Assembly (NCBI RefSeq): GCF_003019035.1
Contig: NZ_CP027447.1
Length of the DNA: 64,000 nt
Origin: Escherichia coli
GTDB taxonomy: Bacteria; Pseudomonadota; Gammaproteobacteria; Enterobacterales; Enterobacteriaceae
Direction: 5' to 3' (one strand)
Shown here: positions 43,897 to 44,100 of the stretch, in pieces
How positions within the stretch are numbered: position 1 is the first letter of the stretch
Layout of the letters: each line of letters opens with the position of its first letter
Notes under the pieces: generated by a model
What the model was told of the DNA's origin: nothing
Databases searched by the model: none
Seen by the model: only the letters and a program-made list of their open reading frames with translations
Made by a program: the position numbers and the translations under genes

Positions 43897-43943
43897 GCTC
43901 CAGTCCTTTTCTTCTGGGCCGACTTTCCGGGAGGTGCTTAAAC

Positions 43944-43978
43944 GAAAAACCCCGCCCGGTTTGCGCCGGCGGGGTTTT
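43944..43978 (-). terminator. ilvB attenuator terminator
   Basis: On the minus strand: CCCCGCCGG-cgcaaa-CCGGGCGGGG followed by TTTTT, between ivbL and ilvB. Confidence 0.55.
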
Positions 43979-44001
43979 GGAATCGTGTGTTGTTCCAGTC
44001 C

Positions 44002-44100
44002 CTACGGCGTATTGCCGACGACCACCACCACACGCACGACGACCACTGCGGCGGATGGCGCAGTTGGTAGTAGTTTTGCGTTGAACATGGAAGTAGTCAT
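44002..44100 (-). CDS. ivbL: ilvB operon leader peptide (32 aa, Val/Leu-rich)
   Basis: Minus-strand ORF translating to MTTSMFNAKLLPTAPSAAVVVVRVVVVVGNTP; run of Val codons typical of a branched-chain amino acid attenuation leader. Confidence 0.75.
   Translation of the reverse strand: MTTSMFNAKLLPTAPSAAVVVVRVVVVVGNTP

Follow-up and report, generated by a model that had tools for sequence, protein, structure and literature searches.

Results and Discussion

Gene content of the ivbL-ilvBN locus

The window analysed here is a 64,000-nucleotide stretch of an Escherichia coli genome (contig NZ_CP027447.1), and positions 43897-44100 of it run, on the minus strand, exactly from the ATG of a short leader open reading frame (ORF), ivbL, at 44100 to the base before the ATG of ilvB. 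The genes at this locus are as follows.

44002..44100, minus strand: ivbL leader ORF, 32 codons plus UAG, encoding MTTSMFNAKLLPTAPSAAVVVVRVVVVVGNTP (NCBIfam, genome annotation, orthologues)
43896-42208, minus strand: ilvB, AHAS I large subunit (NCBIfam NF006016, 1084.4 bits, cut-off 870; annotation)
42204-41914, minus strand: ilvN, AHAS I small subunit (NCBIfam NF006036, 185.8 bits, cut-off 128; annotation)
41914..43896, minus strand: ilvBN, the regulated genes (NCBIfam equivalog models passed)

A 32-residue leader with a valine-rich tract had been read on this strand in an earlier note made from the sequence alone, and it is present just there: the predicted peptide aligns over residues 1-32 of 32 with the NCBIfam equivalog model NF007579, 'ilvB operon leader peptide IvbL', at 76.7 bits (cut-off 60), and the ORF is annotated under the name ivbL in E. 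coli genomes. The ORF listing allows its frame to be extended upstream to a TTG at 44130; the ATG at 44100 was taken as the start because annotation, NCBIfam and 36 orthologues agree on it. The stop codon is TAG at 44004-44002, 105 nt before the ATG of ilvB, and ivbL is co-oriented with ilvB-ilvN.

The agreement with ivbL goes well beyond chance, with matches to a 501-nt query around the leader in 5418 of 5426 complete E. coli genomes, and with both ivbL and ilvB annotated under the match in all 15 of the matches listed. Over the same 501 nt the leader region is identical to that of strain SCU-172 (100%) and differs slightly from that of E. coli K-12 (99.2% identity), and the gene order, yidF-emrD-ysdE-tisB/istR-ivbL-ilvB-ilvN, is that of K-12. 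A search of the minus strand from 43897 to 44130 against Rfam 15 returned no family at the gathering threshold or at an E-value up to 1, a null result that reflects the lack of a matching model in the library and not the absence of an element. The sole nearby Rfam hit at gathering level is istR, at 44230-44359.

Codon content of the leader and its reported responses

Two clusters of codons stand out within the leader ORF.

44068..44073, minus strand: tandem rare Leu codons CUA CUA (codons 10-11), leucine-sensing (sequence; Leu response cited for K-12)
44017..44046, minus strand: valine-sensing tract GUG GUC GUC GUG CGU GUG GUG GUG GUC GUC, codons 19-28, nine Val plus Arg23

The ORF is thus short, translatable and rich in codons of the pathway, with nine Val (codons 19-22 and 24-28, at 44046-44017) and the two tandem Leu codons among 32, and an AUG that follows AAGG. 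To call the leader valine-rich, as had been done, is borne out by the nine Val codons but leaves the description incomplete, as the leader is bivalent and answers to leucine through CUA CUA as well as to valine.

Published work in K-12 bears directly on this codon content. Val and Leu each repress a GFP reporter placed behind ivbL (PMC11187965), with the Leu responsiveness of the leader also found in PMC3783181, and leaders whose Val/Leu codons were swapped for those of Thr or Pro respond accordingly to Thr or Pro (PMC11187965). Deletion of release factor RF3 leads to more attenuation at the ivbL UAG (PMC5373646), which fits the view that a ribosome sitting on the stop codon favours the terminator. 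The leader is in use as a Val/Leu biosensor for metabolic engineering (PMC11187965).

Promoter, 5' untranslated region and spacer

The elements that flank the ORF and the attenuator are listed here.

44132..44138, minus strand: TATAAAT, putative -10-like element of the ivbL-ilvBN promoter (TGTATAAAT conserved across Enterobacteriaceae in the leader alignment)
44101..44126, minus strand: predicted 5' UTR, CA-rich AAACACAAAACCAACAA (sequence and folds)
44110-44107, minus strand: weak Shine-Dalgarno AAGG of ivbL (sequence)
44108-44103, minus strand: GGUCCC, 5' strand of the protector closing helix (folds)
43897..43939, minus strand: attenuator-ilvB spacer with the ilvB ribosome-binding region AAAAGGACUGGAGC, conserved at the 3' ends of the orthologue segments
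43908-43904, minus strand: probable ilvB Shine-Dalgarno AAGGA (sequence)

Judged from the position of the -10-like element, transcription would start near 44126-44124, about 25 nt 5' of the ivbL AUG. The ivbL promoter was missed in a consensus promoter scan of 43800-44500 because its -35 is poor. Further layers of control on the ivbL leader, the GcvB sRNA and RNase E, have been published; K-12 ivbL is reported as a GcvB target, the predicted site being in the 5' UTR close to the AUG (PMC11347164).

Three mutually exclusive structures in the leader RNA

Folding with ViennaRNA, with z-scores taken against 200 shuffles, assigns the leader RNA three structures, a protector, an antiterminator and a terminator, that exclude one another.

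43997..44108, minus strand: protector (5' domain), -46.9 kcal/mol, z -3.96, matched by 0 of 200 shuffles
43964..44009, minus strand: antiterminator, -17.2 kcal/mol, z -3.04, matched by 1 of 200 shuffles
43945..43978, minus strand: intrinsic terminator hairpin AAAACCCCGCCGGCGCAAACCGGGCGGGGUUUUU, 13 pairs with a one-base bulge, GC-rich
43940..43949, minus strand: U-tract UUUUUCGUUU, directly 3' of the terminator stem

The protector is closed by a helix of GGUCCC (44108-44103) with GGGACU (44002-43997), and within it the start of the ORF pairs with the Val tract in a long helix (44100-44087 with 44031-44018, plus inner helices), so that the Val tract doubles as the 3' strand of the protector, or pause, hairpin. 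A small hairpin, CGGC 44017-44014 with GCCG 44008-44005, lies beside it, and in all the protector sequesters 7 of the 8 bases of the antiterminator 5' half. That half, CGCCGUAGGG (44009-44000), covers codons 31-32, the stop codon and the following GGG; it pairs as CGCCG 44009-44005 with CGGCG 43968-43964 and as GGG 44002-44000 with CCC 43973-43971, and the structure is capped by the hairpin UGGAAC...GAUUCCA at 43997-43978. The terminator hairpin folds at -21.1 kcal/mol (z -2.33, with 5 of 200 shuffles folding as well). It shares seven bases with the antiterminator (43978, 43973-71 and 43968-66), for which reason the two cannot form together.

When the transcript is grown stepwise, the protector appears first, the antiterminator is the minimum free energy (MFE) structure from 43964 on, and the terminator replaces it as soon as its own 3' arm is present; a transcript cut before that 3' arm accordingly has the antiterminator as its MFE. 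The hairpin and U-tract together (43978-43940) are the GC-rich hairpin and U-run that had been noticed before ilvB, whose ATG is at 43896. A simple terminator scan missed the attenuator hairpin, probably on account of the bulge. The sequence CGUUU lies directly 3' of the terminator hairpin.

The choice of segment decides what such folding can reveal. The check proposed in the earlier note was a fold of the minus strand from 43897 to 44001, and it yields the terminator alone (z -0.62) and no competing hairpin, because the antiterminator 5' half (44009-44000) lies just outside that range; as the note had named the absence of mutually exclusive hairpins as grounds for refutation, its own check would lead to the wrongful rejection of a correct interpretation. 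With the coding part included, the expected mutually exclusive hairpins do appear (fold z -3.49). Checks of attenuators of this kind need to include the 3' end of the leader ORF, since the antiterminator overlaps the stop codon. The note was silent on the tandem CUA CUA at 44073-44068 and on the placement of the antiterminator 5' half inside the end of the ORF.

Transcript 3' ends and a probable polymerase pause

Term-seq data from K-12 place a strong 3' end 47 nt 5' of the ilvB ATG (PMC7815308 supplementary files 1 and 3), which corresponds to G43943 of the window (...GGGGUUUUUCG), in the U-tract; the same study scores this end as Rho 'No' and gives it an intrinsic-terminator score of 11.96. 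The data hold a second strong 3' end, at +91 relative to the start of ivbL and -113 relative to that of ilvB (PMC7815308), and both offsets map to one base.

44009..44009, minus strand: equivalent of a strong K-12 RNA 3' end, inside codon 31

PMC11077087 counts ivbL among the known hairpin-stabilised pause sites and gives the consensus g-11 G-10 t-3 g-2 Y-1 G+1. Around 44009 K-12 reads G-11 U-10 ... U-3 G-2 C-1 G+1, and the 3' end of the protector helix (44018) falls at -10. The 3' end at 44009 is probably a hairpin-stabilised pause that would synchronise transcription with translation, and the helix between the ORF start and the Val tract would be the pause hairpin. At -2 of this putative pause (44010) the window carries an A.

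Comparative evidence across Enterobacterales

A species-level genome collection was scanned once with the back-translated Val tract, leaving the third positions of the Val codons free, and at least 120 loci were found. At 36 of these the tract is followed, at a distance of 125-210 nt, by the gene of an IlvB homologue (63-98% identical in its first 250 residues), so that the arrangement of ORF, hairpin and ilvB is found again in 36 other species of Enterobacterales, including members of Escherichia, Citrobacter, Enterobacter, Klebsiella, Kluyvera, Leclercia and Pluralibacter as well as Cedecea, Serratia, Yersinia, Dickeya, Pectobacterium, Brenneria and Morganella. All 36 orthologous leaders keep the ORF, CUA CUA, the Val tract and a UAG or UAA stop, and most have a 32-codon ORF that ends in ...AAVVVVRVVVVVG(N/S)AP with a UAG stop.

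Conservation extends to positions at which the peptide places no demand. CTACTA is invariant in 31 of 31 aligned leaders, the Val codons vary little or not at all in their third positions across species, and the codons of Gly29, Ala31 and Pro32 have fourfold-degenerate third positions that never change in the 31-sequence alignment. Such invariance of synonymous third positions indicates selection at the level of RNA.

Base pairs were counted in the same alignment of 31 leader sequences. Of the 13 terminator pairs 11 show no variation, and 97.7% of cells are paired. The antiterminator core has 8 pairs, of which 7 are the same in all 31 species and the remaining one is preserved in 30. No covariation is seen in the antiterminator and terminator cores of these 31 species, an outcome that is neutral because the cores are essentially invariant, and their support comes from conservation. 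Compensatory changes are present in the hairpin that caps the antiterminator, and the protector covaries: 3 of the 6 pairs of its closing helix are altered on both sides (for example GGUCCC:GGGACU in E. coli vs AGACCC:GGGUCU in Enterobacter R1), and the pair between alignment columns 113 and 131 is C-G in 19 species and U-A in 11, with both bases at synonymous third positions. When the species were folded one by one, each of the 37 leaders had a terminator with at least 6 bases of its 5' arm engaged by the region of the stop codon, including the divergent type of Yersinia, Dickeya and Morganella, which has UAA-CGGG in place of UAG-GGG.

Ribosome position and the modelled switch between structures

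To relate these structures to translation, the ribosome was modelled as a footprint by masking positions -15 to +12, counted from the first base of the codon in the A site. The antiterminator 5' half is free for any A site at codons 1-27, and from codon 28 to the stop it is progressively covered and the antiterminator is lost. The model thereby reproduces a switch in which stalling at the Leu codons or at any of Val codons 19-27 would permit the antiterminator and a ribosome at the end of the ORF would forbid it.

The full-length leader at equilibrium, with the ribosome masked, has the terminator at a probability of about 0.88 for every ribosome position, and since the terminator is always favoured at equilibrium the switch must be kinetic. 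In the cut transcript without a ribosome the antiterminator is ahead of the protector by 5.9 kcal/mol, and the barrier to refolding from protector to antiterminator is 9.2 kcal/mol. If pairs that span the ribosome are assumed to be forbidden, this barrier drops to 5.7-7.4 kcal/mol only for A sites at Val codons 20-27, and it is higher for an A site at Leu codon 11 (20.0 kcal/mol) or Val codon 19 (13.0 kcal/mol); if spanning pairs are allowed, barriers are 9-13 kcal/mol everywhere and give no discrimination. The distinction between a ribosome at the stop and a stalled one is therefore clear in the footprint model, whereas stalled and untranslated leaders are not cleanly separated in it, with an outcome that depends on the assumed footprint.

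Two substitutions distinguish this allele from K-12

Within the leader the window differs from K-12 by two substitutions, in a 361-nt alignment without indels. At 44085 a T replaces the C of K-12 (L6F), leaving one non-conserved Leu codon fewer; this variant is common, the identical 61-nt segment occurring in 2044 of 5418 E. coli genomes, and all predicted fold energies are unchanged by it.

At 44010 an A replaces the G of K-12 (A31T, codon 31 GCG to ACG), a rare variant carried by 7 of 5418 complete E. coli genomes. Its predicted effect is the loss of the basal U-A and G-C pairs of the antiterminator, which goes from -21.9 to -17.2 kcal/mol (4.7 kcal/mol weaker), with protector and terminator unchanged. 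The change also replaces the G at -2 of the putative pause. Among the 37 leaders ACG at codon 31 occurs only in the window and, independently, in Enterobacter sp. Ag1, and these two leaders have the weakest antiterminators of the set (-17.2 and -17.8 kcal/mol, respectively). It is conceivable, and put forward here as a tentative reading of the fold energies and of the altered -2 base of the probable pause site, that the change is a natural attenuator-tuning allele whose carriers would derepress ilvBN less under Val/Leu limitation. As such the 44010 variant offers a small, testable hypothesis on natural variation in attenuator strength.

Alternative explanations

The locus is almost certainly the known E. 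coli ivbL-ilvBN leader, a ribosome-mediated attenuator that senses valine and leucine. No observation speaks against this identification, and the other ways of reading the locus can be weighed against it. Were the hairpin and U-tract merely a constitutive (or bidirectional) terminator, with ilvBN transcribed from a promoter of its own under the control of CRP, GcvB and Rho, one could explain why the terminator forms at every ribosome position at equilibrium, why GcvB and RNase E act on the leader, and why K-12 has a Rho-dependent 3' end inside ilvB (PMC7815308); two Rfam matches on the plus strand, STnc310 at 21.4 bits and P6 at 20.6 bits, could be enlisted as well. Those matches, however, lie far under their gathering scores (40 and 50 bits), and we rejected them as sub-threshold terminator look-alikes. 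No promoter-like site was found between the terminator and ilvB in the scan of 43800-44500; neither the antiterminator bases nor the synonymous positions vary among 31 species, and the architecture recurs in 37 of 37 leaders; and in K-12 the reporters respond to Val/Leu (PMC11187965) and perturbation of a release factor alters downstream expression (PMC5373646), so that we give this explanation practically no credence. Termination in the leader might instead be mainly Rho-dependent, through polarity on an untranslated ivbL and not through alternative hairpins, as the C/A-rich 5' UTR and the Rho termination regions inside K-12 ilvB (PMC7815308 supplementary file 2) would allow. The K-12 end in the U-tract was nevertheless called Rho 'No' with its intrinsic-terminator score of 11.96 (PMC7815308), and the hairpin with its U-tract is canonical and conserved, which makes a main role for Rho very improbable.

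A similarly slight probability attaches to the idea that the conserved C-terminal peptide (…AAVVVVRVVVVVGNAP) is itself functional, for example by nascent-chain arrest, and drives regulation in place of codon content. The C-terminal half is almost invariant in amino acids across 36 species and ends in Pro followed by the stop, but the synonymous third positions are equally invariant, which implies a constraint on the RNA; the N-terminal half varies freely, and the recoded K-12 leaders respond to Thr or Pro (PMC11187965), as codon sensing predicts. The constitutive terminator, Rho-dependent termination and the functional peptide are each contradicted by the pattern of conservation together with the K-12 data. 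A narrower question is the identity of the protector, which could be the classical '1:2' structure, where the Val tract pairs with the segment after the stop (for example CGUGUG with CACACG). This pairing does appear in folds of the RNA downstream of a ribosome at codons 11-19, where the antiterminator faces barriers of 13-20 kcal/mol. The G/U-rich Val tract pairs promiscuously, though, and shuffled partners give duplex energies just as good (mean z -0.2, with 1 of 37 species at or below 5%); because of this result in 37 species we rejected the '1:2' protector, and we regard it as unlikely.

A working model of attenuation at ivbL

Under the preferred reading, ribosome-mediated attenuation, transcription would begin about 25 nt 5' of the ivbL AUG, and the start of the ORF would pair with the Val-codon tract in a long hairpin at which the polymerase probably pauses with the RNA 3' end near 44009. 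A ribosome starting at the AUG at 44100 would then melt this hairpin and free the polymerase, leaving translation and transcription coupled, as in the general model for such leaders. When charged tRNA-Val or tRNA-Leu is scarce, the ribosome would stall on CUA CUA or on Val codons 19-27, the exposed CGCCGUAGGG (44009-44000) could pair with CCC..CGGCG (43973-43964) as it emerges, and the antiterminator would take 7 bases of the 5' arm of the terminator and permit readthrough into ilvBN; the structures of this step are computational and the response to Val/Leu is experimental in K-12.

When Val and Leu are plentiful, the ribosome would reach codons 28-32 or the UAG, its footprint would lie over the antiterminator 5' half, the terminator at 43978-43945 would form and the transcript would end near 43943, an account that joins modelled footprint geometry to a 3' end from K-12. 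Without translation the protector may hold the same bases, and termination would be expected here too, in what is the weakest part of the model.

The identity of the elements (ivbL, attenuator and ilvB), their strand and the class of mechanism had all been read correctly from the sequence in the first place, as NCBIfam, the 37 of 37 leaders and the experiments in K-12 attest. Local annotation and strand assignment are confirmed and no concept is changed. The ivbL-ilvBN attenuator is already known, and what is mildly new is a map at base resolution, anchored by 3'-end data, together with the rare 44010 variant. A textbook attenuator has thus been mapped with base resolution of its protector, pause, antiterminator and terminator, backed by 37 species and by published K-12 3'-end data.

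Comparison with known systems

The closest known system is the ivbL-ilvBN attenuator of K-12, described by Friden, Newman and Freundlich in 1982 (cited by PMC3783181 and PMC6123439). It is the same locus, with the same synteny, 32-codon leader, Val tract, CUA CUA, UAG, terminator and spacing, and within the leader it differs from the window only in the bases at 44085 and 44010.

In their logic trpL, hisL, leuL, thrL and ilvL resemble the model drawn here for ivbL: each has a short ORF rich in the amino acids of its pathway, a pause hairpin and an antiterminator and terminator that exclude each other, and senses supply through the position of the ribosome. PMC7815308 places ivbL with them as a leader peptide, and PMC11077087 does so as a hairpin-stabilised pause site. 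They share no sequence homology with ivbL, however, and unlike them ivbL is bivalent, with two separate clusters of codons for Val and Leu, and has an antiterminator whose 5' half overlaps the stop codon itself. A further parallel is the ilvBNC attenuator of Corynebacterium (a three-hairpin model; the ilvB-II motif), in which a leader peptide or uORF reportedly precedes ilvB and alternative hairpins control an acetolactate synthase operon (PMC11857589 and PMC10272879). It is set apart from ivbL by an unrelated lineage and sequence and by another operon content (ilvBNC).

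An insertion between ilvN and uhpA

Downstream of the acetohydroxy acid synthase (AHAS I) genes, the window carries an AT-rich stretch between ilvN and uhpA that is absent from the reference strain K-12, which has about 75 bp at the same junction. The insertion and one of its two ORFs are as follows:

38640-41700, minus strand, AT-rich insertion between ilvN and uhpA
40369-41664, 431-aa ORF of the insertion, intact in the window

Two ORFs of 431 and 504 aa are encoded within it, and these are paralogues of one another (27% identity, E 5e-25), always annotated as 'hypothetical protein', with no Pfam domain found in either. 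Among 5426 E. coli genomes, 1110 have some part of the insertion and 643 have 80% or more of its length, the copies being mostly just 90-95% identical. At this same position strain R13 instead has a DUF6708 pseudogene, so the junction looks like an insertion hot spot.

In SCU-172, the stretch matching the 431-aa ORF is annotated as two shorter ORFs of 636 and 483 nt. This split between two strains that are otherwise near-identical points to a stop codon, a frameshift or a difference in annotation.

Transcript 3' ends in the leader and in ilvB

In the supplements of PMC7815308, Term-seq of K-12 places a Rho-dependent 3' end within ilvB, 197 nt into the gene, corresponding to about 43699 (minus strand) of the window, along with a Rho termination region deeper within ilvB on that strand; these would amount to a second, Rho-dependent checkpoint following attenuation. 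Among the rows of the Term-seq table (PMC7815308) that were examined, a single block gives the 3' end at the attenuator terminator (equivalent to 43943), and two later blocks give the internal end within ivbL codon 31 (equivalent to 44009, minus strand). Growth condition may set which of these two leader ends dominates.

Other structured RNAs

Two further Rfam matches in the window reached the gathering threshold:

59036-59108, minus strand, ROSE_2 RNA thermometer (100.4 bits)
3113-3203, plus strand, tRNA-Sec, selC (83.8 bits)

By the K-12 map, we take the ROSE_2 match to be the ibpA leader. Genomic islands classically integrate at selC, and the sequence adjoining 3203 is therefore possibly of interest.

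The tisB/istR locus upstream of ivbL

The ivbL promoter has a type I toxin-antitoxin locus as its immediate upstream neighbour:

44177-44760, both strands, tisB/istR locus
44230-44359, minus strand, istR (RF01400, 150 bits)
near 44427-44412, LexA-box-like CTGTATAAATAAACAG
44665-44754, plus strand, tisB

In about 1060 E. coli genomes, the match to the 501-nt segment around the leader covers only the part from about 44177 onward. This boundary falls at the promoter's upstream edge, about 77 nt before the ivbL ATG. In R13, the single strain examined among these roughly 1060, tisB is not annotated, and the gap between ysdE and ivbL measures 245 nt, compared with 778 nt in K-12.
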